Shown one piece after another: positions 1 through 42,865 of a DNA stretch of 63,290 bases (the stretch's first letter is position 1; every line of letters starts with the position of its first letter). Below the pieces are notes generated by a model. It was not told the origin of the DNA and did no database searches. It saw nothing but the letters and a program-made list of their open reading frames with translations. The stretch is from Thermoplasmatota archaeon (GTDB lineage Archaea > Thermoplasmatota > SW-10-69-26 > JACQPN01 > JAJPHT01). The DNA lies in contig DATLCC010000109.1 of the NCBI GenBank assembly GCA_035526585.1, positions 1-63,290 of the forward strand, given 5' to 3'. A program made the translations under genes and the position numbers.

Positions 1-2632
1 GTCGGAGTTGGAGGTCGATCTTGGTGATGGTGCGTGGGCCGTGGGCGGCGCCGCGGATGAGGAAGTCGCCGCGTAGCGTGCTGGTGCGTGTGGGGTTTTC
101 GACGGCGACTGTGGGGGGTGGGTGGTCGGCGGGGGGGAGGCCGATGTCGAGGATGCGTTCGGTCTCGGCGTAGCCGGCTTCGTCGTCTTCGACGAGGAGG
201 CGGGCGGTGTGGACGCCGGCGTGCTCGTAGACGTAGGTGCAGTGGGGTTCGGTGGTCTGGCAATCGTCGTGGCCGTCTCCGTCGGCGTCGAAGCGGTAGT
301 AGGCGAGGTGGCCGTCGGGGTCGGTGGCGTTGGCGAGGAGGGTGGTCGGGTAGGCTGCGACGAGTCCGCCGGGTGCGATGTCGATGGTGGCGGTGGGGGG
401 TGCGTTGTGGACGAGGATGTGGTAGGGGAGGGTGAGGGCGAGTCCGGCTTCGTCGTAGACGGTGACGTTGCCTTGGTAGGTGCCGCTTCGTGGGTAGCGG
501 TGGGTGGGGCTTGTTTCGTTGGAGGTGGTGCCGTCGCCGAATTGCCAGGTTGCGGCGACGATGTTGCCTTCGCGGTCGTCGGCGATGACGTCGAAGCGGG
601 TGGGTTGTTGGGCGCGCGGCTCGGGGGGGTCGATGGTGACGTTGTGGATGGCGGGGGCGCTGTCGAGGATGGTGATGTTCTGCGTGTGGTCGGCGGCGGC
701 GCCGGCGTCGTCGATCACGTGGAGGTCGACGGTGTAGTTGCCGGGCGCGCGGTAGGCGTGGAGGGCGGCGGGGCCGTGGGCGGTGGTGTTGTCGCCGAAG
801 CGCCACGTCCAGTTGGCGAGGGGGCCGTCGGCGTCGGTGCTGGCGTCGAGGAAGAGGACCTCTTCGTAGCTCACGGGGAGGGCGGGCTCGTGGCGGAAGG
901 AGGCGGTGGGGGCGATGTCGTGGACGGGGATGGGCAGGCGCGTCTGGGTGGCGTCGCCGGCGTCGTCGACGACGCGTAGCGTGATGTTGTGCGTGCCGCG
1001 CGTGTCGAAGCGCAGCTGGGGCGCGGCTTCGCCGCTCGTGGTGCCGTCGTCGAAGCTCCACGTTCGCTCGATGAGGAGGCCGTCGTGGTCGAGGCTCGTA
1101 TCGTGGAGGGTGACGACGTCGAGGATGGTGGGGTCGGTGGGTGTCCACTCGAAGCGCGCGAGGGGTGCGCCGTTCTCGACCTGGAGGTTCGTTTCGACGG
1201 TGGTGGCGCCGCCGACGTCGTCGGTCGCGGTGACGTTGGCGAGGAAGCTTCCGCGCTCGGCGTAGCGGTGGCGCGCTTCGGGCTTCGTCGTGACGAGGGT
1301 GGTCCCGTCGCCGAAGCCCCAGCGGTATTCGACGACGCGGCCGTCCTCGTCGCTCGCGTCGACCTTGAAGAGGTGCCCGCCGTCGCCAAGCTGCGGCTCG
1401 CCGACAAAGGCGACGGTGGGGAGCCGGTCGAGCGCGTGGAGAGGGATGCTGGCGCTTGCGGATCGGCCGCGCGGCGAGCTCGTCTGCAGGCTGAGGACGT
1501 GGTCGCCCGGTCTCTCGAGCACGAGCGACGCTTCGGCGCCCTCGGCGACGATCGCGCCGTCGAGCGTCCACGTGGCGCGCTCGGCATCGGCGCCCACGCC
1601 CGAGAAGGCAAGGGGCGTCCCTGTGGGCTGCGGCGCGTCGGTGCCGGCGATCGCGAGCTGGAGCGGCGTGTGCGTCAGGAAACGCACGGTGGCGGCGACG
1701 CCCGGCTGTCCTCCGACGCTCAGCGGGACGAAGCGCAGGACGTGCGTCCCGTTGGCAAGGGCGACCATGGGGAGGCGCGTCGTCCACGTGCCCGTCGGCA
1801 GGAGGTCGGCGTCCTGCGCTGCGAGGCCGTCGAGCTGCACGGCGATGCGGACGGCGTCGGAGGCGGTCCCGGTCGCGAGGATGCAGGCTCCTCCGCAGGC
1901 GAGGTCGCCTTCCTCGCCGTAGCTCGCGTCTGGATGGGGGGAGAGGACGCGCACGGTGGGCGGGGCGGGCGAGCCGGCGGCGACGTGCAGGACGCGCGGA
2001 AGGCTGCGCACGGCTCCGAGGGCCGTCGCCGTGAGCGCGTGCGGGCCCGCGGGCACGTCGATGGCCGCGCTCCATGTGCCCTCGTCGATGGGAACGCGCG
2101 CGGCTTCCTGGCCATCCAGCTCGATGAGCACGGCATCGGCGCGGCCCTGGATGGTGCCTCCGAGGGCGAGCGTCCCCTCCGGCAGCCCATCCCCGTCGGC
2201 GGGTGTCAGGATGCGCAGCGTAGGCGCGTCGCGCCGCACCTCGAGGCGAGCGGGGATCGAGAGCGCGTCGCCGTCGAACGCGCGCACCTCGAGCACGTGG
2301 TCGCCCGGCCCGAGGGGCACTCCGATGGCGAAGGGCGTCGACCGCTGGCCGTGCGCGGCGAGGGGCGCGCTCTGCCAGCGGCCGCCATCGACGCGATAAT
2401 GCACGTCCGCGACGTCGCGCGCGTTCGAGAGCGCTTGACCGGCCAGGGTCACGTTCGCGCCTACACCGTCGCCGTCGGCGGGGCTCAGGACCCGCAGCTC
2501 TGGAGGCGCCGGAATACGCTCGGAGGTGAGGTCGAGAAGGCCAGGAATGCTCGTGGTGGGAAGGCTCCACGCGAGCGCGAGGCCGACGATGAGCAGGGCG
2601 CCGACGACGAGCATCGCTTTTGGATGCTTCAC
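1..2632 (-). CDS. PKD-domain repeat surface protein (3' end cut by window edge)
   Basis: Stop-free reverse frame from GTG 2632 to position 1 (absent from ORF track because there is no stop in the window). N-terminal hydrophobic anchor (KHPKAMLVVGALLIVGLALA), then repeated PKD-like modules (W-x-FGDGT...H-x-Y...G-x-Y-x-V-x-L-x-V-x-D). The GTG overlaps the TGA of the upstream ORF (GTGA). Confidence 0.8.
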   Translation of the reverse strand, partial: MKHPKAMLVVGALLIVGLALAWSLPTTSIPGLLDLTSERIPAPPELRVLSPADGDGVGANVTLAGQALSNARDVADVHYRVDGGRWQSAPLAAHGQRSTPFAIGVPLGPGDHVLEVRAFDGDALSIPARLEVRRDAPTLRILTPADGDGLPEGTLALGGTIQGRADAVLIELDGQEAARVPIDEGTWSAAIDVPAGPHALTATALGAVRSLPRVLHVAAGSPAPPTVRVLSPHPDASYGEEGDLACGGACILATGTASDAVRIAVQLDGLAAQDADLLPTGTWTTRLPMVALANGTHVLRFVPLSVGGQPGVAATVRFLTHTPLQLAIAGTDAPQPTGTPLAFSGVGADAERATWTLDGAIVAEGAEASLVLERPGDHVLSLQTSSPRGRSASASIPLHALDRLPTVAFVGEPQLGDGGHLFKVDASDEDGRVVEYRWGFGDGTTLVTTKPEARHRYAERGSFLANVTATDDVGGATTVETNLQVENGAPLARFEWTPTDPTILDVVTLHDTSLDHDGLLIERTWSFDDGTTSGEAAPQLRFDTRGTHNITLRVVDDAGDATQTRLPIPVHDIAPTASFRHEPALPVSYEEVLFLDASTDADGPLANWTWRFGDNTTAHGPAALHAYRAPGNYTVDLHVIDDAGAAADHTQNITILDSAPAIHNVTIDPPEPRAQQPTRFDVIADDREGNIVAATWQFGDGTTSNETSPTHRYPRSGTYQGNVTVYDEAGLALTLPYHILVHNAPPTATIDIAPGGLVAAYPTTLLANATDPDGHLAYYRFDADGDGHDDCQTTEPHCTYVYEHAGVHTARLLVEDDEAGYAETERILDIGLPPADHPPPTVAVENPTRTSTLRGDFLIRGAAHGPRTITKIDLQLR

Positions 2633-3114
2633 GGGAGGCAGACCCCCGGGACGACGCAGCTCGCGCTCGCAGGACGGTCGACGAGCTCGAACTCGGACGA
2701 AGCGCCGGGCAGGTCGACGACGTGCCCGCGGAAGCGGACGATGATATCGACGTCGACGCCGGCGGCGGGATCGACCTGCAGGCGCCGCACGCCGGGGTGG
2801 CACAGGACCGCATCGTGGCTCGTGGGGAGGACGATGACGCTGGCGCGGCAATCGGTCGTGAGGTAGAACGGCTCGTCCGCCGCGCTCTGCGCCTCGACGA
2901 GGACCTCGGTGGGCTCGGGGATGGTGATCACCCACGAGGCCTCGTCGTTCAAGAGGATCAAGGGGCCCGCCGGCGTGGGGCTCGCGATCAGTCGCTCGAC
3001 GTGGACGTCGAAGGCGCTCCCGACCTGCGCGACGGCCGGGAGGCTAAGGGTCATGGCGAGCGCGACGGCAACGAGAGCCCCAAGGCGCAAAGGCGCGGCC
3101 TCCGTGGCTTCCAA
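2629..3114 (-). CDS. secreted hypothetical protein
   Basis: 161-aa ORF with signal-like LGALVAVALAMTLSLPAVAQ. Its stop overlaps the start of the downstream PKD gene, so they are probably co-transcribed. Confidence 0.6.
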   Translation of the reverse strand: MEATEAAPLRLGALVAVALAMTLSLPAVAQVGSAFDVHVERLIASPTPAGPLILLNDEASWVITIPEPTEVLVEAQSAADEPFYLTTDCRASVIVLPTSHDAVLCHPGVRRLQVDPAAGVDVDIIVRFRGHVVDLPGASSEFELVDRPASASCVVPGVCLP

Positions 3115-3396
3115 CTATGCTCTCGCGAGGGATGGGGTTTCGGTGTCACCGCGCGGGACACCGGCATCCACCGCCTGTACGGCTAAGACGTGATTCTATC
3201 CCTTTGAATCGGAAAAGCGTAACTCTGTACGGATTTCTTGAATCCTGACCAGGTTTTGCGCGTATCGCTCGCAAAAGGGTGGCGGGCGCGCTCGACGCTC
3301 ACGAGCTGATATGACGGCAGGGCAAGGGGGTGGTGCTGTGCGCCCCGAACCGCCGAAACGAGGCGTGGACTTATGTCGCGACGAAAAGCGGTGAAA

Positions 3397-3444
3397 CTAA
3401 CTAGTCCCGTCACTAGACAAGTCACTAGGCAGGTCACTAGATGG
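3397..3444 (+). repeat. 12-bp iterons GTCACTAG-N4 (3 full copies plus one partial ACTAG copy)
   Basis: taACTAGtccc GTCACTAGacaa GTCACTAGgcag GTCACTAGatgg. The last copy contains the ATG (3441) of the AbrB-like gene. It lies at the end of a low-GC spacer. Confidence 0.8.
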
Positions 3445-3758
3445 GGATGGAAACGCGCGTTTGGAGGACCGGATACGAAACCAACCTGCTCACCACCGTG
3501 CCGAAAGCCGTCCGCGAGCAGCTCGCCCTCACCCACGACGACCGGATCCGATGGAGCGTCGAAGGGGGGTTCGCCCGCGTCGCCAAAGCCGGCGCCGACG
3601 ACGGCGAGGCCACGACCTACCGGCTGTACAAGCAGACGCGCGGAAACAGCCTCTACACAACGCTCCCCGCATCGGTGGTCGAGCAGCTGCGCATGACCGA
3701 CCGCTCGCGGGTCGAGTGGGAGCTCCAAGGTGGGATCGCGCACGTCCGCAAGGCTTGA
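3441..3758 (+). CDS. tandem SpoVT/AbrB-like DNA-binding protein
   Basis: 105 aa with two AbrB-like segments (TTVPKAVREQLALTHDDRIRWSV and TTLPASVVEQLRMTDRSRVEWEL) in one chain. Confidence 0.6.
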   Translation: MGMETRVWRTGYETNLLTTVPKAVREQLALTHDDRIRWSVEGGFARVAKAGADDGEATTYRLYKQTRGNSLYTTLPASVVEQLRMTDRSRVEWELQGGIAHVRKA

Positions 3759-3759
3759 G

Positions 3760-4617
3760 GTGCCCCAACCGGACACGAAGCCGGCCATCGTCCTCGACAG
3801 CTCGTACGAGCTTTCGAACGAAATTTCGAAAATTCGATTCCGCGTGCTGACGCGCGTATCCGACGACAAGCTCCGATCCATCCCTCAGCAGCTCGCGGAC
3901 TGCGCGGCCTACGTCCAAGGGCTGACGCGCGACGCCGTGATCGACGGGCTCTACAACCTGGGCGAGCACTCCGGCTTCTCGATGACGGAAAGCGAGGTCT
4001 ACCGGCGCATGCTCGACGACGCGCGCGCCGGCAAGTTCCACGCGCTCGTCGTCCGCGACACGAGCCGCCTCGGCCGCGACTACTGGGAGAAGCTTGGCAC
4101 CCTCCGCGACCTGCGCAGCGCCAAGATCGAGTTCCACGTCGTCGAAGACGGCGGCCGCTTCGATTTCGAAGACCGCCTCTCCAAGGTCAAGAGCTGGGCG
4201 AGCACGTGGGCCGACGAGGAGAAAAAGAAAGAAGAGATCCGGAAGTCGCTGCGAGCCACAGAAGCGCGCCGCGAGATGGGCTTCCCCACGGTACCCCCGC
4301 CGCTGGGCTATCGCGTCGTACGCGATCCCGACATGGGCCGCAAGGTGTGGAAGCTGGACGCAGCCGCCGCCAAGGTGAGCGCCTTGTTCGATGCCTTCGT
4401 CGCCGAGCCCGCCCTCACGTTCTCCGAGCTCGGCCGCCGGTGCGGGCTCGACGCGAAGCAGGTCGCACGCGCGCTCCGTAACCGCGCCTACACCGGGGGC
4501 TTCGTGTGGCAGGGAGGCTTCCGTCGCTGCGCGCCGGAAGTGGTACCTGCGATCGTGGACGAGGGGACGTTCGAGCGGGCGCAGGCCGCGCTCGCGGCCA
4601 GGCGGGACGACGCGTAG
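3760..4617 (+). CDS. serine recombinase (resolvase catalytic domain + recombinase domain), copy 1
   Basis: RVSDDKLRS nucleophile region, VVRDTSRLGRDYWE block, then LGYRV...LRNRAYTGGFVW recombinase-domain-like part. GTG 3760 lies 2 nt after the AbrB-like stop (track start 3730 is the longest alternative). No zinc-ribbon or coiled-coil tail. Confidence 0.8.
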   Translation: MPQPDTKPAIVLDSSYELSNEISKIRFRVLTRVSDDKLRSIPQQLADCAAYVQGLTRDAVIDGLYNLGEHSGFSMTESEVYRRMLDDARAGKFHALVVRDTSRLGRDYWEKLGTLRDLRSAKIEFHVVEDGGRFDFEDRLSKVKSWASTWADEEKKKEEIRKSLRATEARREMGFPTVPPPLGYRVVRDPDMGRKVWKLDAAAAKVSALFDAFVAEPALTFSELGRRCGLDAKQVARALRNRAYTGGFVWQGGFRRCAPEVVPAIVDEGTFERAQAALAARRDDA

Positions 4618-4672
4618 GACCCACGCGGGGGCCGGGTGGCGCCCGGGTGAGGCCACGCGGGTCGACGCGTGG
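4598..4672 (+). repeat. CACGTG-unit intergenic repeat, copy A
   Basis: GCCAGGCGGGACGACGCGTAG (supplies the recombinase stop codon), then CCACGCGGGGG CCGGGTGGC GCCCGGGTGAGG CCACGCGG GTCGACGCGTGGC. Confidence 0.75.
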
Positions 4673-4733
4673 CTGCGCCTGGCAAAGAGGCGGGGAAACT
4701 GTTCATATCTCCGAGCTGCCTCCTTGGGCGCGC

Positions 4734-5078
4734 ATGAACCGCCGCCGCGTCACCACCCGCATGATCCGCCTCTCCCTCGTCCGCTCGCGCATCAAGCTAC
4801 GCATCCTCTTCGCGCTCCTGGACCTGGGAGAGGCGAGCCTCGCGGACCTCGCCCGCGAGGCGCGTGCCAAGCCCGCCCACGTCGAGGGCGCGCTTTTTGG
4901 AGATGGCGTCGCCTTCCGCACAAGCACGGCCCTCGTCGCCTTGGGGCTCGTCCGCGTGCGAGAGAGCGTCTTCTCGCGAACTGCGACCCTCACGCCGCGT
5001 GGTCGCTCCGTCGCCACCGTGTGGCGACGCGAATCCACCCGCGCGACGCTCGGCCTCGCGCGCCACCCGCATGCGTGA
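4734..5078 (+). CDS. winged-helix (ArsR/TrmB-like) DNA-binding protein
   Basis: 114 aa from ATG 4734. RIKLRILFALLDLGEASLADLAREA looks like a wHTH. The upstream part of track ORF 4506.. is repeat-derived Arg/Gly-rich sequence. Confidence 0.55.
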   Translation: MNRRRVTTRMIRLSLVRSRIKLRILFALLDLGEASLADLAREARAKPAHVEGALFGDGVAFRTSTALVALGLVRVRESVFSRTATLTPRGRSVATVWRRESTRATLGLARHPHA

Positions 5079-5083
5079 GACGT

Positions 5084-5146
5084 CCACGTGGCCCCACTTC
5101 AGGACACGTGGCATCCACGTGGGGGCCACACGGGGCGACGCGTGGC
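5084..5146 (+). repeat. CACGTG-unit intergenic repeat, copy B
   Basis: CCACGTGGC CCCACTTCAGGA CACGTGGCAT CCACGTGGGGG CCACACGG GGCGACGCGTGGC. Confidence 0.75.
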
Positions 5147-5226
5147 GCGTTGCGCGACTTTCGGTTCGCTCCGCCTCGTTTCGACTTCGGAGCCTTCTTA
5201 ATCCTCCGCAGTGTCTTGCGCCTTGG

Positions 5227-6225
5227 ATGCACACGCTCGACGCCTTTCTCGCTGAGGTCGATCGCCGCCTGAAGGATGGCGAGGATCGCGATCCTCGCGT
5301 CATCGATCTCCTGCGCCCGGAAGAGACCGCGGCGTTCCGCGCGCGTGGCGCGCGGGTCTACCGCGTCCTCGCGCGCATCAGCGACGACAAGCTGCTGAGC
5401 ATCCCGCAGCAGGTCAAGGAATGCGTCCGATACGCCTGGGGTGACGTCGTCGGCGGCGTCCGTCGCGTGGATGCGGAAACGGTCGGAGGCGTCGTCGACC
5501 GGATCTACAGCCTCGGTGAGCATTCGGGATTCAAGATCGATCAGTCGCCTGTGATGCGTCGCGTCCTTCAGGAGGCGGAAACGCACGAATTCGACGCGCT
5601 CGTCGCTCGCGACGGCGCTCGTCTAGGCCGTGACTATTGGGAGAAGATGGGCACGATCCGGGACTTCCGCCGCTCGAAGGTGGAGCTCCACATCATCGAG
5701 GATGGCGGCTTCTTCGACTACGAGGATTCCATGAACAAGGTCCGTTCCTTCGCGAACACGTGGGGAGACGAGGGAAAGAAGCTCGAGGAGATCCGCAAGT
5801 CGATGAAGGCGACGCAGGCGATCCGCGACGCGCGCTTCCCGACGACGTCGCTCCCGTTCGGCTACGAGCCGGCCGTCGATGCGGTGAGCCGCCGCAAGGT
5901 GTGGCGCCCGACGCCCGAGGCGGAGGTCGTTCGCAGCGTCTTCCGCTCGATCAAAGAGGAGCCCTACGAGGAGTTCAGCTCCCTCTCGCGCCGACACGGC
6001 ATCAGCCGGCAGCTTCTGCGCAAGATCCTCCGCAACCGCGCTTATACGGGCGGATTCAACTGGAAGGGGCAGTTCGTGCGCTGCGAGACCCACGTCATCC
6101 CGCCCCTCGTGGACGAGGTCACGTTCGAGGAGGTCCAGCGGATCCTCACCCGCCGCGAGATGACGGCACGGATCCGGAGCCCGGACCTGATGAACGTCAT
6201 CCTCGGTTTCAGCCAGCAGAGCTAG
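5227..6225 (+). CDS. serine recombinase, copy 2 (paralog of 3760..4617)
   Basis: Shares blocks with copy 1 (LGEHSGF, RLGRDYWEK-GT-RD, EDGG-FD-ED, LRNRAYTGGF-W) and has the RISDDKLLS nucleophile region. ATG 5227 was chosen because the longer track ORF (4864..) overlaps the wHTH gene and repeat B. Confidence 0.8.
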   Translation: MHTLDAFLAEVDRRLKDGEDRDPRVIDLLRPEETAAFRARGARVYRVLARISDDKLLSIPQQVKECVRYAWGDVVGGVRRVDAETVGGVVDRIYSLGEHSGFKIDQSPVMRRVLQEAETHEFDALVARDGARLGRDYWEKMGTIRDFRRSKVELHIIEDGGFFDYEDSMNKVRSFANTWGDEGKKLEEIRKSMKATQAIRDARFPTTSLPFGYEPAVDAVSRRKVWRPTPEAEVVRSVFRSIKEEPYEEFSSLSRRHGISRQLLRKILRNRAYTGGFNWKGQFVRCETHVIPPLVDEVTFEEVQRILTRREMTARIRSPDLMNVILGFSQQS

Positions 6226-6249
6226 TCTCGGAACCTTCGATGACCCCTC

Positions 6250-6286
6250 CCGGCGACCACCATGCGGGTCGCCGGAGAGCGTTTTT
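6250..6286 (+). terminator. hairpin plus T-run after recombinase 2
   Basis: CCGGCGACC (6250-6258) / GGTCGCCGG (6267-6275) with an 8-nt loop, then TTTTT at 6282-6286. Confidence 0.4.
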
Positions 6287-6289
6287 CTC

Positions 6290-6880
6290 GTGCTTTCCAC
6301 CGCCCCGACGGTCATCCCTTTTCTTGCGGAGGGTCAGGTGCGGCCAGGTGACGCCACCTTCTCCCTGGTGCTCTCCTCCTCGGCCCTGCTCGCCGAATTC
6401 GAAGCGCGCCTGCTCCTCGACGCGGCCGCCCGGGGGCAGGATTCCGTCCTCATCTGCGGCGACAACCGTCTCGATGCCTACGGTCTCCTAGCCCGCGCCC
6501 GCGCCATGGGCATCGAGGACGCACTCGCCGACGGCGTGCACCTGGCTCGCGCGTTCACGCTCCACCAGTTCGTCGCGCTCGTCGAGGAGACGCTGCCGCG
6601 CATGGCGCGCGAAACGGACGCCTCGCTCGCTCTCGTCACGGGGTCGCTCGACCTGTTCGCCGACGAGGACGTGACCGAAGCCGAGGCCCGTGTCCTTCTC
6701 CCGCGGATGATGCGACGGCTGGGCGCGCTCGCGCACCGGGACATGATCGTCGTCGCGACCGGCGATGCGCGTTCGCGGCACGCTGACCTCGCGCGCGAGC
6801 ACGCTCCCCACCGCGAGATCTCCAGGATCGCGCCCTCCGCGCGCCAGCCGCGCCTCGACGCGTTCGTGGAGGTGGCATGA
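6290..6880 (+). CDS. RecA-fold (RadB/KaiC-like) protein lacking a P-loop
   Basis: 196 aa with a RadB-like layout by eye (IPFLAEG-VRPGD..., LALVTGSLDLF, IVVATGD). No GxxxxGK[ST]: the position reads LVLSSSALLAE. No clear Walker-B Asp. ATGA overlap with the next ORF. Confidence 0.45.
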   Translation: MLSTAPTVIPFLAEGQVRPGDATFSLVLSSSALLAEFEARLLLDAAARGQDSVLICGDNRLDAYGLLARARAMGIEDALADGVHLARAFTLHQFVALVEETLPRMARETDASLALVTGSLDLFADEDVTEAEARVLLPRMMRRLGALAHRDMIVVATGDARSRHADLAREHAPHREISRIAPSARQPRLDAFVEVA

Positions 6881-7128
6881 TGGGGCGGACCATGCCCACC
6901 TCCCGCGACATCCTGGACCGTCTCGAGTTCGAGTGGCGCGATTTCCGTCGGGGCCTCACCGGCGCCGAGCAGGCGCGCTTCGATGCGCTCTGGCAGATGG
7001 CGCGCGCGCACGCGAGCGCGATGTCGAACCAGGCGCCGCTCGACCCGATGCAGGCCGCGCTCCTGTCGATGCTCCTGGAGTTGCAGAAGGAGGTGGAAGC
7101 GTTACGGAAGGCGTCCTCCTCGACGTGA
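6877..7128 (+). CDS. small helical hypothetical protein
   Basis: 83 aa. Its start overlaps the upstream stop (ATGA) and its TGA overlaps the GTG of the polymerase gene (GTGA). Composition is normal. Confidence 0.45.
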   Translation: MMGRTMPTSRDILDRLEFEWRDFRRGLTGAEQARFDALWQMARAHASAMSNQAPLDPMQAALLSMLLELQKEVEALRKASSST

Positions 7129-9413
7129 CCCCCGACCCGCGTCGACGCGAGATGGTCGCATGGGTGAAGACGCCGACGCGCGTCGTCCCGACCCGGCACT
7201 CGTTCACGCCCGCGTTCTACGTCTCCGGTCCGCGACCCGCGCTCGAAGATCTCGCGCGCACCTTGCCGCTGCTTCCCGGCGTCGAGGCGCCCACCTGGGG
7301 ATCGCATCTTCTTGGCCTTGCGCCCGGTCATCGGCGCGCGCTCAAGGTCCCCGTACGCGACATGAAGCGTCTGATGCAAGTCGCGAAGATGGTGGACGCG
7401 CGCGGGGAGCACCGCGACTTCACGCTCTACGATGTGGATCTGCGCGCAAGCCAGCGCTTCTTCATGGAACGAGGACTGTTCCCTTTCGCGAACGTGCGCC
7501 TGGAGCCCGAGGGGCTCGTCGCGATCGACGATGCGTGGGATCTCCGCTACGACGTCCCTGCCCTCAGCGAGGTCCATCTGGACGTCGTGGTCGAGGACAT
7601 GGCTCGCCTCAAAGGCCCCATCGTGCACATCGAGATCGAGGGAGCGCACTTCGAGGGGAGGGAAGAGGATCTTCTGAGCGAGGCGCAGGCGCGTCTCCAC
7701 GCGCTCGATCCCGACGTCGTGCACACGGACGGCGGCGATCGCTGGATGCTCGACCATCTCGCGGCACGGGCGGCGATCCACGGTATCGCGTGGGACCTGG
7801 GGCGCGACGCGACGCTCTCCGTCCCGAGACGGCGCGCGCGGAGCTTCCATCAGTACGGGCACATCCGATACAGCGCGCCGACGCACCCACTGGTCGGGCG
7901 CATCCACGTCGATCACCAGTCGAGCTTCTTCTTCCGCGAATCGGGGCTCGCGGGGATCATCGATCTCGCCCGCATCTCAGGCGTGCCGTTGGGCGAGATC
8001 GCGCGCCTCGAAGCCGGGACCGCAGTGACCGCGATGCAGATCGGGCACGCGAAGCGCGCCGGCCGCTTGATCCCGTGGAAGAAGAACATGCCCGAGAAAC
8101 CAAAGACGCTGCGTTCTCTCGTCAAGGCCGACCGCGGCGGCTACATCTACGATCCTCGCGTCGGGCTCCACGAGGACGTCATCGAGCTCGACTTCTCCTC
8201 GCTCTACCCCGCGCTCATCGCGAAGCACAACCTCGGCGCGGAAACGATCCTCTGCTCGTGCTGCGACCCCCGCGAACTCGCTCCGGAGTGCTTCGTTCCC
8301 CAGATCGGCTTCCACGTGTGCGACAGGCAACAGGGGCTCGTGCCCCAGGTGCTCACGAAGCTCGTCCACCGCCGCTCTGAGCTCAAGAAGATGCGAAAGC
8401 GTGAGCGCAAAGGCACGCCCAAGTTCAACGAGTACAAGGGGCGTGTGGACGCGCTCAAATGGCTCAACGTCGTCTCCTTCGGCTATCAAGGCTACAAGAA
8501 CGCGCGCTTCGGCTGCATCGAAGCGCACGAGGCCACGTGCGCGTGGGCGCGCGAAGCGCTCCTCTCTGCCGCCGAGGTCGCCCGCGAGAGCGGCTACGAG
8601 GTGCTCCACGGCATCGTCGACAGCCTCTGGCTCGAAAGGACGACGCCGGCCGCCATCTCGGCCGAGGATCTCGCAGAACGCGTCGAGCAGGAGGTCGGCA
8701 TTCCCTTCGAGCCGCAAGGACGCTACCACTGGATCGTCTTCCTGCCCACGCGCGCCCACGTGGCGCCAGGTGCCCCCAGCATCGGGGCGCCCAACCGCTT
8801 CTACGGTCTCTTCGACAAGGAGCCCGACGCGCCCACCCGTAGCCAGGCCGGGCAGGACATCGACCACATCGCGGGCGGCGCGCTCAAGGTGCGCGGGGTC
8901 GAGCTTCGCCAGAGCAGCGCGCCGCAGGTGGTCGCCACGATCCAGGCAGCCTTCCTCGAGGCGCTCTGCAAGGCGAAGAGCGCCGCCGCGTTCCACGCCA
9001 TCATCCCCGACGCGTTCACGGCCGCACGCCCGCACGTGCGCCGGTTGCAGGAGGGCGCATACCCGCTCGAAGAGCTCGTCATCGAGATGAATGTCACGAG
9101 CGGCCTCGAAGGGCGCACCAGCATGACCCACACCACCGCCGCGCTGCACCAGATGAAGAAGCTCGGCCACGAGACCCCCGCCGGGGACCGCGTGCGCTAC
9201 GTCATCACCGACGCGGAGAGCCGCGACCCGGAGCAGCGCGTCCGCGTCGCCTCGCGCCTCCACGAAGGCACGCGCTACGACGCGGACGCGTACCTGACGC
9301 TTGTCGTGCGGGCTCTTACGAGCCTCCTGCTGCCCCTCGGGTATGACGAGGCGCTCGTGCGCGACGCGCTCACCGGCGCGCCGCGGCAGGTCGCGCTGCC
9401 GCGGGCACGGTGA
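7125..9413 (+). CDS. polB: family-B DNA polymerase with non-canonical motif C
   Basis: Motif A LDFSSLYPALI, motif B KWLNVVSFGYQGYKNARFG, motif C region VLHGIVDSLW (IVD where DTD is expected). Start set at GTG 7125 (alternative ATG 7152). The upstream part of track ORF 6765.. is Arg/Pro-rich junk overlapping two other genes. Confidence 0.88.
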   Translation: MTPDPRRREMVAWVKTPTRVVPTRHSFTPAFYVSGPRPALEDLARTLPLLPGVEAPTWGSHLLGLAPGHRRALKVPVRDMKRLMQVAKMVDARGEHRDFTLYDVDLRASQRFFMERGLFPFANVRLEPEGLVAIDDAWDLRYDVPALSEVHLDVVVEDMARLKGPIVHIEIEGAHFEGREEDLLSEAQARLHALDPDVVHTDGGDRWMLDHLAARAAIHGIAWDLGRDATLSVPRRRARSFHQYGHIRYSAPTHPLVGRIHVDHQSSFFFRESGLAGIIDLARISGVPLGEIARLEAGTAVTAMQIGHAKRAGRLIPWKKNMPEKPKTLRSLVKADRGGYIYDPRVGLHEDVIELDFSSLYPALIAKHNLGAETILCSCCDPRELAPECFVPQIGFHVCDRQQGLVPQVLTKLVHRRSELKKMRKRERKGTPKFNEYKGRVDALKWLNVVSFGYQGYKNARFGCIEAHEATCAWAREALLSAAEVARESGYEVLHGIVDSLWLERTTPAAISAEDLAERVEQEVGIPFEPQGRYHWIVFLPTRAHVAPGAPSIGAPNRFYGLFDKEPDAPTRSQAGQDIDHIAGGALKVRGVELRQSSAPQVVATIQAAFLEALCKAKSAAAFHAIIPDAFTAARPHVRRLQEGAYPLEELVIEMNVTSGLEGRTSMTHTTAALHQMKKLGHETPAGDRVRYVITDAESRDPEQRVRVASRLHEGTRYDADAYLTLVVRALTSLLLPLGYDEALVRDALTGAPRQVALPRAR

Positions 9414-9523
9414 TGCCACACGGGACGACGCCTGGCGCCCACGTGTGTGCTATGTGGCGCCCACGTGGGGCCACGTGGGCCCACGTGGCGCCCACCTGGG
9501 TGCCACACGGGACGACGCCTGGC
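9414..9523 (+). repeat. CACGTG-unit intergenic repeat, copy C (terminal module duplicated)
   Basis: TGCCACACGGGACGACGCCTGGC occurs at 9414-9436 and again at 9501-9523, bracketing GCCCACGTG-type units. The copy spans nearly the whole gap between the convergent polB and truD stops. Confidence 0.8.
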
Positions 9524-9529
9524 CCGGCC

Positions 9530-10825
9530 CTAGGCGAGCGCCGCCGCTTCGCTCTTCATGACCTCGCGCAGCACGCACGTCGCGTAGCTGCCTTTGAGGA
9601 GGAAGAACGACAGCTCCGCGTAGTCCCCGCCTGCGTCGTGTCCATCGGCGTAGCGGACGGGCCCGAGCGGCGCGAGGAGCTCGCGGCGTGTGCCGTACGA
9701 GGCGGCTTCCGGGAGGTGCGGGATCAGGAGGTCTTCGGGCGTCCAGCCCATCTCGGAGATGGCTTTGGCCTCGAGCTCGCCCATCGCGCCTTCGGCGAGG
9801 GCGATGTCGCTGCCATAAAGGACGCCCGTGACGAGCGCGCGGCCTTCGCGGCAGAGCTTCTGGACGCGCGTGTGGTTCTGTGCGGTGACTTTGTGTGGGC
9901 GGTCCTTGTCGGGGCGCCCCTCGGCGTCGAGGCCGAAGACGACGTCGCCCGTCTGCGGATCGTTGAGGCCGATGCCGGCGGCCATGCGACGCGCCACGAT
10001 GCGGTTGAAGACGAGGCTTTGCGCGGCGTAGACGAACATCGTCAGGAGGTTGCGCGGGAGGGAGAGGAGCGCGCCTTCGAAGTCGTCGGGGCGTTGCGAG
10101 AGGTGCCAGACCATCTGGCGCTCGAACTGGAGGTGGCGCGGGTAGAGCGGAAGCGCGGCCGGGCCGTCCTTCTCGTACGCGACACGGGCCGCGCGGCAGT
10201 CGGCCGGCTCGTCGGGGCTCGGGTTGCCGACGTAGAGCCGGACGGCTTCGCGCAGGTCGCCGCGGACGATCGCGATGCCTACCTTGTGCGTGACCGGGCG
10301 CGTCACCCCGAAGCGTTGGACGCCGAAGTAGTTGGGGAATCCGCCGGCGCTCTGGAGGCGCTCGATGATGTCGCGTCCCGAGCCTTCGTGCTGTCGGACC
10401 CTCACGACGAAGCGGTTGCCCACGAGCTCGCCGATCTTTGGCGCGCGGTCCACGCGCCGCGTCTCGAGGACCTCGACGTCCTTCATGGCGAGCGCGCGCA
10501 CCTGGGGCTCGGGCGCGCGCAGCGAGACGTATTGCGTGGTGATCGCGCGCTTGTCCTTCGTGCCGGCGAAGAAGATCGCTTCGCGCGAGATGCCGAGCTC
10601 GCGCGCAAGTTCCGCCATCAGGCGGTTCGTCTCCCAGTTGCGCACGCGAAGCGCTGCGACCGTGTACTTCCCCTCGGCCACGGGCGGAGGGAACGCGAGC
10701 GGGACCTCTTCGACGACGAAGTCCTCGGGGAAGGTCTTGAGACGCCCGCCGATCCCTGGCTCGTCCGTGAGGTACTGCTCGAGGCCTACGTCGCGCTCGA
10801 TGCCTGCGGGCGTCGGGCGGACCAT
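9530..10825 (-). CDS. truD: tRNA pseudouridine synthase TruD/Pus7 type
   Basis: 431 aa with FPEDFVVEEV and GTKDKRAITTQ (catalytic Asp motif). Confidence 0.9.
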   Translation of the reverse strand: MVRPTPAGIERDVGLEQYLTDEPGIGGRLKTFPEDFVVEEVPLAFPPPVAEGKYTVAALRVRNWETNRLMAELARELGISREAIFFAGTKDKRAITTQYVSLRAPEPQVRALAMKDVEVLETRRVDRAPKIGELVGNRFVVRVRQHEGSGRDIIERLQSAGGFPNYFGVQRFGVTRPVTHKVGIAIVRGDLREAVRLYVGNPSPDEPADCRAARVAYEKDGPAALPLYPRHLQFERQMVWHLSQRPDDFEGALLSLPRNLLTMFVYAAQSLVFNRIVARRMAAGIGLNDPQTGDVVFGLDAEGRPDKDRPHKVTAQNHTRVQKLCREGRALVTGVLYGSDIALAEGAMGELEAKAISEMGWTPEDLLIPHLPEAASYGTRRELLAPLGPVRYADGHDAGGDYAELSFFLLKGSYATCVLREVMKSEAAALA

Positions 10826-10833
10826 GGGCGCGC

Positions 10834-11115
10834 TCAGGCGCCAGTGGCGCGGACGAGGAGCGTCTCGAACTCGTCGAAGTGCTGGCGCAGGTCCTTCGCC
10901 GCGTTCTTGATGGCGGCGTCGGCCTTGCCGGACCGCATTTCGAAGACGAAGAGCGGGTTGTCGAGGTATGGGTGGCCCATGATGTAGGTGGCGCTCTCGA
11001 CGCCGGGGTCCTCGAGCAGGCGCTGCTTGAGGAGGTTGAGGAGCGTGTCGTTCTCCCCGATGAACTCGAGCTCCATCTTCTTGTCGGTCTTCGAGACCAG
11101 GCGCAGATCCATCAT
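10834..11115 (-). CDS. rpoL: DNA-directed RNA polymerase subunit L (Rpo11)
   Basis: 93 aa with LEFIGENDTLLNLL...ATYIMGHPYL. Sits in the conserved position next to csl4. Confidence 0.85.
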   Translation of the reverse strand: MMDLRLVSKTDKKMELEFIGENDTLLNLLKQRLLEDPGVESATYIMGHPYLDNPLFVFEMRSGKADAAIKNAAKDLRQHFDEFETLLVRATGA

Positions 11116-11124
11116 GATATCACC

Positions 11125-11697
11125 TTACAGGACGTTGCCCTCGCCGTAGTCTTCGGCGAGCTTCTTCATGTCCTTCCAATCGCATTCGGGGCAGACGACG
11201 CCCTTGCCCTTGCGGGACATCTGCGTCCCGCAGCGCGGGCAGTAGGACTTGAGGACGCCGAGACGGGGGCCCTTCGTTGTGAGCTGGATCGCGGGATCGG
11301 TCTCGAGGACCTTCGCGCGGATGACGTCGCGGATGCGGAGGGCGTCCTCCATGTTCTCGACGTACTGGTCGCTCGTCTTGCTGACGTGGAGCGTCCCGTT
11401 CGTGTCGCCGCCGATCCCGCGGTTGGGCATCTCGGCGATGCGCTGGACCTGGACGATGGCCATCGAGCTGCGCGTCATGCCGACGACGCCGATGACGATG
11501 TCCCCGGGCTTCACGACGGCCGGACGGGCGGGGATGATGCTTTCGACGCGCGCGACGAAGTCGTTCGTGTCCAGGGTCAGATAGCCCACGGTCGCGGAGA
11601 AGACGTCTCCGTTCTCCTCGTAGGTGCCAGGTCCGGGGACGAACTCCTCGGCGACGCCGACGTTCTCCCCCGGGTACACAAGGCGCTTCTGGACCAT
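11125..11697 (-). CDS. csl4: exosome complex RNA-binding protein Csl4
   Basis: 190 aa with an S1-like core and a C-terminal zinc ribbon (CPRCG...CPECD). Confidence 0.85.
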   Translation of the reverse strand: MVQKRLVYPGENVGVAEEFVPGPGTYEENGDVFSATVGYLTLDTNDFVARVESIIPARPAVVKPGDIVIGVVGMTRSSMAIVQVQRIAEMPNRGIGGDTNGTLHVSKTSDQYVENMEDALRIRDVIRAKVLETDPAIQLTTKGPRLGVLKSYCPRCGTQMSRKGKGVVCPECDWKDMKKLAEDYGEGNVL

Positions 11698-11724
11698 GGA
11701 AAACGGCGCTGCAATCCCCCGCCC

Positions 11725-11733
11725 TTATTTAAA
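11725..11733 (-). promoter_or_regulatory. TATA-box-like element for csl4-rpoL-truD
   Basis: Reverse-strand TTTAAATAA about 28 nt upstream of the csl4 ATG (11697), in a GC-rich spacer. Confidence 0.5.
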
Positions 11734-11772
11734 GGGTAACCAGCGCAAACGGAACGAGGACTCAGTTGTGCT

Positions 11773-12384
11773 TCAAGCGGATTCGCGTGACTTTGTCAGG
11801 CGAAGTGCGACGACCTCGATCTCCTGCACGGCCTTCTCCTGGTGGCGATATTGGTGCCGGAGGGGAAAGAGGAGTCGCCACGCATGGGTCGCCCGGAAAC
11901 CGCCCTCCGCGGCGTACGACTCGACGAACGCGCGCGTCGCCGCGTTGTGCAGCGTGTAGACGACCGGCGCGCTCGCCATCGCTGCATCGAGGAACGCGCG
12001 GTCCGCGCCGCGCTGCTGCGCTCCGAAGGGCGGGTTCATGAGCACCGTGTCGACGGCCCCGCGCCACCCGCGCACGTCGGCCTCGACCCAGTCGACGGCG
12101 GCGCGCAGCTTCCGCGCCGCGCCGCGCGCCAACTCGATGGAGGCCGCGTCCACGTCGACGCCCGTGGCGCTCGCGGCGCCCAGGAGGGCGGCGCCGATCG
12201 CGAAGACGCCGGTGCCGCAGCCGAGGTCGACGATGCGGCGGCCCTCGATGTCCCCCATCGTCACGGCCTCGAAGAGGAGCGGCGCGGCGAGTGCCGCGGG
12301 CGTCTCGTACTGCTCCAGCTCGAGCTTGGGGGCCGGATGCGGCGGGATGGATGACAGCATCCGTTCGATATCGTTCAGGCGCAT
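11773..12384 (-). CDS. METTL5-like SAM-dependent methyltransferase (NPPF/G type)
   Basis: 203 aa with SAM motif VDLGCGTGVFAIGA and MNPPFG. This is the usual neighbour of csl4/rpoL in archaea. Confidence 0.8.
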   Translation of the reverse strand: MRLNDIERMLSSIPPHPAPKLELEQYETPAALAAPLLFEAVTMGDIEGRRIVDLGCGTGVFAIGAALLGAASATGVDVDAASIELARGAARKLRAAVDWVEADVRGWRGAVDTVLMNPPFGAQQRGADRAFLDAAMASAPVVYTLHNAATRAFVESYAAEGGFRATHAWRLLFPLRHQYRHQEKAVQEIEVVALRLTKSRESA

Positions 12385-16757: not shown

Positions 16758-16810
16758 CAGGTGGCGCCACGTGGGGACCACGTGGGGGCCAGGCGGGGAG
16801 ACGCGTGGCG
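16758..16810 (+). repeat. CACGTG-unit intergenic repeat, copy D
   Basis: CAGGTGGC GCCACGTGGGGA CCACGTGGGGG CCAGGCGG GGAGACGCGTGGC. Confidence 0.8.
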
Positions 16811-18375: not shown

Positions 18376-18434
18376 GACGCCACGTGGAGGCCAGGTGGCG
18401 CCCACGTGGGGGCCAGGCGGGGCGACGCCTGGCG
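18376..18434 (+). repeat. CACGTG-unit intergenic repeat, copy E
   Basis: GCCACGTGGAGG CCAGGTGGC GCCCACGTGGGGG CCAGGCGG GGCGACGCCTGGC. Confidence 0.8.
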
Positions 18435-20511: not shown

Positions 20512-20556
20512 GGCCAGGTGGCGCCCACGTGGGTGCCACGCGGGACGACGCCTGGG
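20512..20556 (+). repeat. CACGTG-unit intergenic repeat, copy F
   Basis: CCAGGTGGC GCCCACGTGGGTG CCACGCGG GACGACGCCTGG. Ends immediately before the grpE stop codon. Confidence 0.8.
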
Positions 20557-22889: not shown

Positions 22890-22952
22890 CCCACGCGTCG
22901 TCCCGCGTGGCCCCAGGTGGGCGCCACCTGGGGCGGCAGGGCGCCACGAGGG
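22890..22952 (-). repeat. CACGTG-unit intergenic repeat, copy G (inverted orientation)
   Basis: CCCACGCGTCGTCCCGCGTGG CCCCAGGTGGGC GCCACCTGGGG..., which is the reverse complement of the usual terminal module plus units. Confidence 0.75.
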
Positions 22953-24692: not shown

Positions 24693-25573
24693 CGCACGAG
24701 CGCCGCGGCATTGTCCCAAAGGATGCGGCCCTTCGCGGCGTCCGAGAGACCTGGCGTGGCAAGCAGATCCAACACGTTCTGGCGCATGGAGCGGATGCCC
24801 GGAGAGGGCCAGTCCGTCCCCCACACGATCTTCTCGGGGATCTCCGCCAGCCGCGGCAGCGCATCGAACAGTCGTGTGGGCGGGATGCCCGAGATCTCGA
24901 TGTACACATTGGCGTGACGGCGGGCGAGGAAGAACGCCGTTGGCCCCCACAGGGGACGCCCCGCGTGGGCGACAAGAAGCGGAAGCGAAGGATGGTCGGC
25001 CGCGATGTCGTCGATGAAGAGCGGGTCCGTGAAGGTGTTCTTCGCCCGCGGAAAAATGCTCGTTCCGGTATGGATCGTGACGGGGATGCCGTGCTTCTCT
25101 GCGACCTCGTAGAGGGGACGATAGCACGCGTCGTTGGGGTACAGAAGCTGGTGCGCGGGATGCACCTTGAACATCTGGATCCCAAGCTTGACGAGGCGCT
25201 CGGCTTCCGCTCCCACGTTCGCGACCGTGCGCGGATGGACGCTCCCCATCGGCACGAGGCGCGGACGCCCGCGGCAATACGCCGCGACCCAGTCGTTCAC
25301 GTCGGGGCCGAACCCCATGACATGCGGGGAAACGTAGTTGACGCACACAGCACGGTCGACCCCTTCGCCGGCGAGATAGCGTTCGAAAGCTCCGGGGTCG
25401 GATTGCAGCGCGACGAGCTCGTCGACGTCGGAGCGCCCGCGCACCATCACGGGGTAGACCTCCGGGCGCAGCATCCGCCAGGGCTGCATGTGCACGTGGG
25501 CATCGAAGACGCGGTACCCTTCGATCAACGCGGGCCGCGATCGCGGGGCGCGCGGAAAGCGCTTGCGAGCCAC
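24689..25573 (-). CDS. amidohydrolase-2 family metal-dependent hydrolase
   Basis: Has FDAHVHM, VHPAH, IHTG, VAHAG and WGTDWP. Start is GTG 25573 or TTG 25528. Its stop shares the tetranucleotide CTAG with the pyrG stop. Confidence 0.8.
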   Translation of the reverse strand: MARKRFPRAPRSRPALIEGYRVFDAHVHMQPWRMLRPEVYPVMVRGRSDVDELVALQSDPGAFERYLAGEGVDRAVCVNYVSPHVMGFGPDVNDWVAAYCRGRPRLVPMGSVHPRTVANVGAEAERLVKLGIQMFKVHPAHQLLYPNDACYRPLYEVAEKHGIPVTIHTGTSIFPRAKNTFTDPLFIDDIAADHPSLPLLVAHAGRPLWGPTAFFLARRHANVYIEISGIPPTRLFDALPRLAEIPEKIVWGTDWPSPGIRSMRQNVLDLLATPGLSDAAKGRILWDNAAALVR

Positions 25574-25656
25574 GCGTCTCCCCGTCTGGCACCCACCTGG
25601 GGGCCAGGTGGCGCCTACCTGGCCCCACCGAGGGGCCCCGCGGGGAGACGCCTGGC
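25569..25656. repeat. CACGTG-unit repeat, copy H, with 15-bp inverted termini
   Basis: Left end GCCACGCGTCTCCCC (25569-25583) and right end GGGGAGACGCCTGGC (25642-25656) match 14/15 as an inverted repeat. CACCTGG/CAGGTGG units lie between them. Confidence 0.8.
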
Positions 25657-26881: not shown

Positions 26882-26969
26882 GCCAGGCGTCGTGTCGCCT
26901 ATCACCCACCTGGCACCCAGATGGGGCCCACCCGGCCCCACGTGAGAGCCACGCGGGACGACGCGTGGC
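26882..26969. repeat. CACGTG-unit repeat, copy I, with imperfect inverted termini
   Basis: Left end GCCAGGCGTCGTG and right end GACGACGCGTGGC match 11/13 as an inverted repeat. Internal units are CACCCACCTGGC ACCCAGATGGGG CCCACCCGGC CCCACGTGAGAG. Confidence 0.75.
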
Positions 26970-29290: not shown

Positions 29291-29370
29291 GCCTGGCACC
29301 CACGTGGATCCACCTGGATCCACCTGGCACCCAATGGAGCCCACGCGGGACGACGCGTGGCGGCGCCTGG
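29291..29370 (+). repeat. CACGTG-unit intergenic repeat, copy J
   Basis: GCCTGGC ACCCACGTGGAT CCACCTGGAT CCACCTGGC ACCCAATGGAG CCCACGCGG GACGACGCGTGGC. Confidence 0.8.
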
Positions 29371-42754: not shown

Positions 42755-42865
42755 CCACGTGGCGCCACGTGGGCCCACATGGCGCGCTGGGCGTCAGGTG
42801 GCCCTCGGGTGAGGATCGGGTGGCGCTCAGGTGCGGGCCAGGTGTCCCTCAGGTGTGGCGTGAGG
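42755..42865. repeat. degenerate 10-bp-phased CACGTGG/CAGGTG array, copy K (no terminal module)
   Basis: CCACGTGGCG CCACGTGGGC CCACATGGCG CGCTGGGCGT CAGGTGGCCC TCGGGTGAGG ATCGGGTGGC GCTCAGGTGC GGGCCAGGTG TCCCTCAGGT GTGGCG. Confidence 0.7.

Follow-up and report, generated by a model that had tools for sequence, protein, structure and literature searches.

A chromosomal AbrB and serine recombinase locus in Thermoplasmatota, compared with known recombination systems

To our knowledge, serine recombinases are known in archaea from mobile elements, such as IS607-type transposases and the resolvases of plasmids and proviruses, and the only housekeeping site-specific recombinase recognized in this domain is the tyrosine enzyme XerA. 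The locus considered here was found in a stretch of 63,290 nt from a Thermoplasmatota archaeon (contig DATLCC010000109.1, positions 1–63,290, assembly GCA_035526585.1), which is referred to as the window and to which all coordinates belong, other than those given for named relatives. Near its left end are the genes of a small AbrB-type DNA-binding protein and of two paralogous serine recombinases, designated Rec1 and Rec2. A literature search found no description of this recombinase family or of an archaeal pairing of AbrB with a serine recombinase.

The serine integrases (phiC31, Bxb1, SPbeta, TP901-1 and A118) share with Rec1 and Rec2 the catalytic domain, the long helix E, the recombinase domain and the catalytic serine and arginine residues. 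However, they are 450–700 aa in length against approximately 285–332 aa for Rec1 and Rec2, which possess neither the zinc ribbon nor the coiled coil. It is through these two parts that the integrases recognize the outer half-sites of att and determine directionality. A further difference is that Rec1 and Rec2 are carried by neither phages nor plasmids and have no evident attP/attB pair. The CcrA/CcrB recombinases of the staphylococcal cassette chromosome (SCC) resemble the present pair in that two paralogous serine recombinases are neighbors, adjoin a conserved housekeeping gene at its 3' end and are accompanied by variable cargo. The Ccr proteins, however, are full-length large serine recombinases (LSRs), and SCC has direct repeats at its borders and is found in some strains but not in others, whereas here the recombinases are fixed in all relatives and the cargo alone is variable; there are also lineages with a single recombinase.

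In the Tn3-family resolvase/res and the Hin/Gin systems, the recombinase has its binding site within the promoter region next to its own gene, an arrangement similar to that seen here, and it is plausible by analogy that autoregulation through site occupancy and local inversion occur at this locus as they do in resolvase/invertase systems. The small resolvases and invertases have a C-terminal helix-turn-helix, while Rec1 and Rec2 have the recombinase domain instead, and no three-subsite res, enhancer or hix-like inverted-repeat pair was found at the locus. YneB of Bacilli, a resolvase-like homolog at a fixed chromosomal place with no mobile element, is alike in its setting but has no recombinase domain and no AbrB partner. 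As regards the AbrB protein, the likeness is to MraZ of the dcw operon, a single-chain AbrB-like protein with two AbrB-type half-domains, which binds three to four direct boxes repeated in its own promoter at about one helical turn, one subunit per box, and whose gene stands first in the operon under its control (PMC12957436). The archaeal locus differs from that of MraZ in its CTAG-based boxes, their 12-bp spacing, its host and the recombinase downstream.

A fixed and vertically inherited locus

An earlier note on this DNA, made from its letters, had described four genes (AbrB, Rec1, a winged-helix protein and Rec2), all of which are present. The window has a G+C content of approximately 69%, and the locus and its flanks are arranged in it as follows, slot A being the interval from Rec1 to the Rec2 promoter and slot B that between Rec2 and TruD.

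2–2599, minus strand: PKD-repeat protein, conserved left flank, cut by the window edge and divergent from AbrB
2629–3114, minus strand: small fast-evolving protein, conserved left flank, divergent from AbrB
3441–3758, plus strand: AbrB, tandem SpoVT/AbrB (MazE-like) DNA-binding protein of 105 aa (Pfam, internal repeat)
3730–4617, plus strand: Rec1 serine recombinase, alternative start 3760 (Pfam, ortholog alignment)
4734–5078, plus strand: EarA-like winged-helix protein of 114 aa, slot A (Pfam)
5227–6225, plus strand: Rec2 serine recombinase of 332 aa (Pfam, alignment, AlphaFold)
6290–9413, plus strand: operon for a 196-aa protein, an 83-aa protein and a PolB2-like polymerase, slot B (Pfam, NCBIfam)
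9530–12384, minus strand: TruD, RpoL, Csl4 and a methyltransferase, conserved right flank (synteny)

There is good support for an AbrB/serine recombinase locus that resides in the host genome, is inherited vertically and is under strong constraint, and for a duplication of its recombinase in the sub-lineage of the window. A search with Rec1 returned 72 proteins falling into two groups, Rec1-like (~285 aa) and Rec2-like (~330 aa), and 99 homologs of AbrB were found with identities of 59–91%; in both sets, all those with a named source came from Thermoplasmatota metagenome bins. On every long contig the gene order is NMD3, DUF424, Lhr helicase, a PKD-repeat protein of ~1200 aa and the small protein on one strand, continuing with AbrB, Rec1 and Rec2, and then with TruD, RpoL, Csl4 and the methyltransferase on the other strand. 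The same order, PKD/p161, AbrB–Rec1…Rec2 and TruD–RpoL–Csl4–methyltransferase, was found in the window and in L001, L003, L005, L007, L008, L009, L011, L092, L094 and L096. A TruD genome scan and a Rec2 metagenome scan added L011, L091, L092, L094, L096 and L097, each of which has this gene order. AbrB–Rec1 and Rec2 lie between the PKD-protein operon and TruD–RpoL–Csl4 in at least 12 independent Thermoplasmatota loci.

In the deeper lineages L100–L106, whose TruD proteins are 50–53% identical to that of the window, AbrB (34–66% identical) is accompanied by a single recombinase; the site adjoins TruD in L100–L105, and L106 has no TruD nearby. Since these lineages have AbrB and one recombinase at the site, only the recombinase was duplicated, and it is well supported that the ancestral unit was AbrB plus one recombinase, the second being specific to the sub-lineage of the window. 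In a neighbor-joining tree, the topology of which is only indicative, most of the single recombinases (L100 and the P0059/P0062/P0067/P0073/P0074 groups) sit with Rec2, L103 takes a basal position and the Rec1 clade falls outside the group that includes Rec2. After the duplication Rec1 remained coupled to AbrB, and Rec2 has a conserved promoter block of its own. The view that a module of DNA-binding protein plus recombinase had been duplicated in tandem therefore has to be given up, as only the recombinase has a paralog and the two small DNA-binding genes are unrelated. The earlier note had also held that single chromosomal genes in a conserved housekeeping context would speak against its reading; such a context was found, and the recombinase is single in the deeper lineages. 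Sister lineages with the same TruD block but without the module also exist (L012 and L013). These nearest module-free lineages were considered as empty sites and rejected, as the PKD/Lhr flank is missing there as well.

Divergence of the locus follows that of its surroundings. The window proteins are 80–92% (Rec2), 76–83% (AbrB) and 59–72% (Rec1) identical to their orthologs, with corresponding values of 68–79% for TruD, 74–85% for RpoL and 68–78% for Csl4 in the flank. Pairwise identity of Rec2 correlates with that of TruD/RpoL/Csl4 (r = 0.68), and L011 and L092 are the closest relatives in both sets. Nonsynonymous and synonymous divergence (dN and dS) was calculated by the Nei-Gojobori method, with the same eight loci used for every gene. 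The dS values of Rec2 (0.73), Rec1 (0.69) and AbrB (0.80) match those of four neighbors (0.53–0.78), which indicates that the module has been in these genomes for as long as its neighbors. The dN/dS ratios were 0.19 for Rec2, 0.175 for AbrB and 0.425 for Rec1, compared to 0.29–0.37 for the neighbors. Both recombinases evolve under purifying selection, and Rec2 and AbrB are under tighter amino-acid constraint than the adjoining housekeeping genes, including that of an RNA polymerase subunit. Such constraint, together with intact serine recombinases and a dedicated AbrB protein retained at one address across a divergence reaching ~50% TruD identity, points to a host-level function, one not so far described, and the locus looks more like a tool long kept by the host than like a mobile element.

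Searches for mobile relatives gave no close homologs. A profile search of 1.8 billion cluster representatives yielded only five below 1e-30, followed by generic serine recombinases at ~1e-20, and nothing closer than 25% identity was found in IMG/VR (Rec2, family-profile and PolB scans), in INPHARED phages or in PLSDB plasmids (Rec2 tblastn). No att-like or bounding direct repeats were found flanking the module, and no polymorphism of empty and occupied sites was found inside the clade. PADLOC defense-system models had no match among the module proteins. The remainder of the window is ordinary chromosome (DnaJ, DnaK, CTP synthase, CarA and ABC transporters), in which neither further copies of module genes nor tRNA genes, as candidate integration targets, were found. 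The G+C content at third codon positions (GC3) is 0.81–0.87 in module genes and 0.90–0.96 in flanking genes.

Recombinases, AbrB and candidate DNA sites

The description of Rec1 and Rec2 as paralogous serine recombinases with a resolvase core and a recombinase domain, but no zinc ribbon or coiled coil, was borne out by Pfam, by their identity and by AlphaFold. The resolvase domain (PF00239) scored 45.9 bits in Rec1 and 32.7 bits in Rec2 (cut-off 23.3), the recombinase domain after helix E (PF07508) scored 25.4 and 25.8 bits (cut-off 21.1), and the two proteins are 50% identical across 266 aa (E = 7e-92). Both end approximately 15–35 residues past the recombinase domain, with no Pfam match to a zinc ribbon, and Rec2 is extended at its N terminus by a conserved stretch and ends in a helix tail. 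Orthologs of Rec1 begin with "MSARLE" and a matching "SARLE" is encoded upstream of 3760, so the start of Rec1 is most likely the GTG at 3730, with an overlap of 29 nt with the AbrB stop.

A Rec2 AlphaFold model built with 29 family members had a mean predicted local distance difference test (pLDDT) score of 88. Its best fold matches are the SPbeta, phiC31 and Bxb1 integrases over their N-terminal and recombinase domains (Foldseek E ~1e-9), including the crystal structure of the phiC31 N-terminal-plus-recombinase-domain fragment (structure matches 4bqq, 9y66 and 9rah). The chain ends at the point where the zinc ribbon and coiled coil of the integrases would follow, with one to two short terminal helices in the model. 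The family profile reached LSR catalytic domains as its best matches among PDB sequences; direct PDB sequence searches with Rec1, Rec2, AbrB and the 196-aa protein gave nothing useful. Both recombinases match a phage integrase PHROG, and there were weak NCBIfam matches, far below cut-off, to CcrB in the catalytic domain (E = 3.8e-6) and to YneB-type proteins (E = 1e-4 to 8.5e-4), to whose family Rec1 and Rec2 accordingly do not belong. By domain content, Rec1 and Rec2 are LSR-lineage serine recombinases without the zinc ribbon, the coiled coil and the mobile-element hallmarks of serine integrases.

The catalytic serine and arginine residues, on whose conservation the earlier note had made its reading depend, are retained: R32, S34, R103 and R106 (Rec1 numbering), within the motifs Arg-x-Ser and R-L-G-R-D, are invariant in 27 aligned family members. 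From the motif pattern R-x-S … R-L-G-R-D we take them to be the equivalents of R8, S10, R68 and R71 of gamma-delta resolvase. As judged from these residues, both proteins are catalytically intact and apparently active. If enzymes of this kind work on short simple sites without a zinc ribbon, they would be compact recombinases of possible practical use.

AbrB gave a Pfam match to PF04014 in two stretches (30.1 bits, cut-off 24.7), and its halves are 40% identical across 45 aa (E = 1e-11), an internal repeat within a single chain. It also matches the MazE/PrlF antitoxin families in Pfam and NCBIfam, and no match to the MraZ family was obtained. The protein consists of the two AbrB repeats alone, with no toxin-binding C-terminal tail. 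The earlier view of it as a dedicated partner of the first recombinase is supported, and this partner is conserved. The DNA elements around AbrB and Rec2 are listed below, together with the corresponding palindromes of four single-recombinase lineages.

3355–3363, plus strand: GAAACGAGG half-site ("site A"), left edge of the conserved module
3382–3440, plus strand: promoter-like stretch (B recognition element/TATA) and four [A/C]ACTAG iterons (k-mer counts, conservation)
5174–5204, plus strand: Rec2 promoter block CCTCGTTTCGACTTCGGAGCCTTCTTAATC, ending in the TATA-like TTCTTAATC, shared across loci
L100 palindrome: GGAACGAGG-AGGGGG-CCTCGTTTC
L104 palindrome: AAACGAGGCC-CA-GGCCTCGTG
L105 palindrome: CAACGAGG-CCCCCT-CCTCGTTG
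L106 palindrome: GAACAAGGCC-CAGG-CCCTGTTGAC

The iterons begin at 3400, 3412, 3424 and 3436, with a spacing of exactly 12 nt, the first adjoining a TATA-like A/T-rich stretch and the last the ATG of AbrB. CACTAG occurs three times in the window, each time inside this array. The four-iteron array is kept in 11 two-recombinase loci, and CTAG iterons with the same spacing are also found in the single-recombinase L100 and L103–L106. By analogy with MraZ, AbrB would repress its own operon through the four CTAG iterons, which run at a 12-bp spacing from the TATA-like box to the ATG, with one two-domain AbrB protein per iteron box.

Site A lies approximately 85 nt upstream of the AbrB ATG. Only two exact copies of GAAACGAGG occur in the window, at 3355 (plus strand) and 5174 (minus strand), inverted relative to each other and bracketing AbrB–Rec1–EarA. 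Each of these forms the 5' edge of one block that can still be aligned at nucleotide level with L011 and L092: the homology starts at 3355, and that with L092 restarts at 5174. The Rec2 promoter block is approximately 30 nt long, and it opens with the 9-nt motif of 3355 in inverted form. It is the sole non-coding element between Rec1 and TruD that is common to most loci (best 11-mer in 8 of 11). In the single-recombinase lineages site A is a full palindrome, AACGAGG-N2-6-CCTCGTT, the arms of which change symmetrically among L100, L104, L105 and L106; in the two-recombinase clade it has shrunk to a half-site. L100 has a second, near-identical palindrome in the opposite orientation between AbrB and the recombinase, and the pair brackets the promoter and AbrB. 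Serine recombinases bind palindromic sites as dimers, and for this reason the AACGAGG element is a candidate recombinase site; the recombinases may recognize the palindrome or the half-sites found at the borders of both transcription units. With the conserved iterons and the palindrome, defined candidate DNA substrates are at hand for direct testing.

Local rearrangement, cargo and competing explanations

In most loci the Rec2 gene is oriented away from Rec1. The opposite orientation is seen in L001 and its sister L094 and, independently, in L009 (the sister of which, L005, is not inverted), giving at least two flips. By BLASTN the inverted block extends from approximately 50–60 nt upstream of the Rec2 ATG through the stop codon (~1.06 kb), and the Rec2 promoter block travels with the gene upon inversion. 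No conserved inverted repeats were detected at the two ends of the inverted block. Of the earlier suggestion of an invertible element, the part that holds is that the Rec2 unit is inverted between lineages; the flanking inverted repeats it would call for were not found. A look-up of the exact Rec2 protein of the window found it on no other contig.

Slot A is empty in L001, L007, L011, L092, L094 and L096; the non-coding gap between Rec1 and Rec2 is 295 bases in L011 and ~170 in L092. It holds an EarA gene in the window and in L005, a PhzF gene and a small open reading frame (ORF) in L003, other small ORFs in L008 and L009, and ~2 kb in L097. In the window 116 nt separate Rec1 from the EarA gene, and 148 nt separate the latter from Rec2. 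The EarA-like product matched PF07381 with 47.7 bits (cut-off 22, E = 1.4e-12), as scored on the longer ORF 4506–5078. Its gene is absent from L011, L091, L092, L001, L007, L094 and L096, and the EarA-type gene of L005 lies in the same place on the opposite strand, its product being 33% identical. The proposal that the winged-helix protein is the dedicated partner of Rec2 is contradicted by L011 and L092, which lack the gene, and by this diverged, oppositely oriented homolog. It is well supported that the EarA winged-helix gene is lineage-specific cargo lying outside any repeated unit.

Slot B is empty in most loci, and Rec2 nearly abuts TruD in the closest relatives L011 and L092. A trio of genes that includes a PolB2-like polymerase follows Rec2 in the window, L008 and L096 only, i.e., in three subclades, and consists in the window of the following genes.

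6290–6880, plus strand: 196-aa protein (p196), slot B operon
6877–7128, plus strand: 83-aa protein (p83), slot B operon
7125–9413, plus strand: PolB2-like family B DNA polymerase, slot B operon

The three are joined by ATGA/GTGA start/stop overlaps. The first two belong to no Pfam family and match viral PHROG families of unknown function. The polymerase aligned over its full length to the PolB2-type NCBIfam models PRK05761.1-4/-2 with 401 bits, short of the cut-off of 692, and its motif C reads HGIVDS instead of DTDS; it is PolB2-like and not a confirmed member of the archaeal PolB2-type family B. The status of this operon as variable cargo is well supported. Other contents of slot B are a 674-aa repeat protein in L007 and a gene with a von Willebrand factor A (vWA)-like product and two large partners in L106. 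L001, one of the loci with an inverted Rec2, has a 172-aa gene in the interval from Rec2 to TruD, on the Rec2 promoter side. The L106 group (3300–7292) comprises, after the recombinase, the vWA-like gene (weak Pfam matches), a 297-aa protein without matches and a 744-aa protein with a helix-hairpin-helix domain, in which a kinase-like HGDLxxxN motif was also seen by eye; the group may resemble the TerY-type vWA/phosphatase/kinase triad.

These arrangements suggest that the substrate of the recombinases would be local DNA, with the Rec2 unit flipping and the flanking slots (Rec1–Rec2 and Rec2–TruD) exchanging genes. Since Rec2 flips and the slots are variable, the locus may serve as a rearrangement site or "landing pad" with resident recombinases, and without movement of its own. 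On balance we lean towards reading it as a chromosomally fixed, vertically inherited and AbrB-autoregulated recombinase locus of a soil Thermoplasmatota lineage, which acts locally and is not a duplicated mobile module. It is possible, though doubtful, that the serine recombinase has been co-opted for a cellular task, whether res/dif-like resolution on the AACGAGG palindrome or an AbrB-gated platform for gene capture or rearrangement. On such a platform, which would be loosely integron-like but built on serine recombinases, the recombinases would stay fixed while the cargo (repair polymerase operon, regulators and others) turns over. A heteromer of Rec1 and Rec2, acting on asymmetric half-sites, may have arisen from the duplication.

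Several observations weigh against an autoregulated, locally acting locus. The AlphaFold2 model of AbrB is mainly beta but mediocre (pLDDT 71), and with this moderate-confidence model no Foldseek match reached E = 0.001. The assignments of AbrB to the iterons and of the recombinases to the palindrome are drawn from analogy. In a k-mer search of 11 loci for a site pair around Rec2 only the Rec2 promoter block was found, and no att-like repeats are recognizable beside the cargo. Dispersed repeats bracketing the EarA gene and the Rec2–PolB segment were considered as att sites or cassette boundaries and rejected, there being at least ten other intergenic copies. Arrangements were identical in all six same-species contig pairs from different samples, so that no ongoing flipping was seen. 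Gene order also varies at other nearby junctions, for example beyond the 144-aa gene, and the term "hot spot" is therefore relative.

Among the competing explanations, one holds that AbrB, the recombinase and p196–p83–PolB2 were brought in by a plasmid or virus that integrated long ago and of which a decaying remnant is left, with the recombinases as selfish or neutral leftovers and piecemeal loss behind the variable content. The PolB2-like operon beside Rec2 in three subclades has diverged further than the core, as would be expected from an old origin with repeated loss, the PHROG matches of p83/p196 (viral) and of Rec1/Rec2 (phage integrase) point the same way, and module GC3 is slightly below that of the flanks. 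Leftovers should decay, however, yet the dN/dS ratios of Rec2 and AbrB are the lowest locally and the catalytic residues are invariant down to 50% TruD identity. Given also that the core is present in every sampled member, that the PolB operon is absent from single-recombinase lineages and that no related element was found on viral or plasmid records, a remnant appears rather unlikely. We consider it improbable that the recombinase carries out housekeeping resolution of chromosome or replicon multimers with the AACGAGG palindrome as a res- or dif-like site, comparable to XerS/difSL or resolvase/res. A single-copy, vertically inherited, strongly constrained gene would suit such a role, as would a conserved palindrome of ~20–24 bp in a divergent promoter region with symmetric changes in its arms; res itself lies between tnpA and tnpR, a layout similar to that of the palindrome here. 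In the two-recombinase clade, though, only a half-site is left, sister lineages with the same TruD block do without the module, and a role in dimer resolution leaves the duplication and local rearrangements unexplained.

An invertible switch is a further alternative, in which inverted AACGAGG sites would flip a promoter segment and alter expression of Rec2, of AbrB–Rec1 or of the PKD surface-protein operon (phase variation). It would account for the two exact inverted GAAACGAGG copies around AbrB–Rec1–EarA, for the L100 palindromes around promoter and AbrB and for the variable orientation of Rec2. It is made quite improbable by the AbrB segment, which has the same orientation in all ~16 lineages, by the inversion of Rec2 alone with no inverted repeats at its ends, and by same-species contigs from different samples, which never differ in arrangement. 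The view first put forward for this DNA, that of an active integrative element with two recombinases and their own DNA-binding partners for integration and excision in the manner of CcrA/CcrB, can point to adjacent paralogs at the 3' end of a housekeeping gene, to variable cargo and to the weak CcrB match (E = 3.8e-6). It has become highly improbable: the locus occupies the same site in all relatives within a fixed housekeeping context, and diverges as its hosts do under vertical inheritance; no att or bounding direct repeats, tRNA target or mobile relatives were found, the winged-helix gene is not conserved and deeper lineages have one recombinase only. Least credible of all is a toxin-antitoxin-like pair in which the AbrB/MazE-fold protein neutralizes a toxic recombinase. 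The MazE/PrlF matches, the overlapping genes and the operator repeats in the AbrB promoter recall such pairs, but there is no toxin-binding tail and no toxin-family or PADLOC match, Rec2 has no partner of this kind, and a single-copy, syntenic and vertically inherited locus is unlike toxin-antitoxin loci.

Repeats and further features

A repeat that is not specific to the module occurs throughout the window, at the following positions.

4597–4673, plus strand: copy of the window-wide palindromic repeat GCCACRCGGGNCGACGCSTGGC, after Rec1
5076–5149, plus strand: copy with CCACGTGG 10-nt arrays, before Rec2
9415–9526, plus strand: copy between PolB and the TruD stop
16767–16809, 18380–18433, 20525–20556, 22890–22911, 25569–25656, 26948–26969, 29300–29361, 42755–42772: further copies

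The family is built on a near-palindromic core of 22 nt, GCCACRCGGGNCGACGCSTGGC, which has 13 matches in the window where 0.16 would be expected. In front of this core there are usually CCACGTGG units spaced 10 nt apart, with 16 matches compared to an expectation of 1.2. The copies are intergenic, lie 5' and 3' of genes alike and are absent from the loci of relatives; the family looks REP-like (repetitive extragenic palindromic) and species-specific.

The spacer running from AbrB/Rec1 to the Rec2-type promoter often carries short tandem arrays, which differ by lineage and are local to the spacer within the available stretches:

L104, 5405–5470: GCAACAAAY, at least six copies
L005, 11342–11469: 35-nt palindromic unit, four copies
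L011, ~4940–5020, reverse strand: CGCAGGTGC-like units with a 10–11-nt period
L008, 11531–11560: CCTCCGCGT
L105, 7780–7830: TTCGCGCGAA

In the right flank, RpoL and Csl4 form one fused 367-aa ORF in L101 (10392–11495) and L102 (7130–8233) and are two genes in L100 (10392–11593), which is of the same lineage; the fusion may represent a frameshift, an assembly difference or a gene-calling artifact. In the left flank, the small protein encoded at 2629–3114 and its orthologs have a mean identity of only 44% and a dN/dS of ~0.8 where the neighboring genes are conserved, and a hydrophobic signal-like N-terminal segment was seen by eye. A second giant PKD-repeat gene lies at 52341–56492 (minus strand), and its 1383-aa product is approximately 28–32% identical, across repeated segments, to the L001 ortholog of the PKD protein flanking the module.

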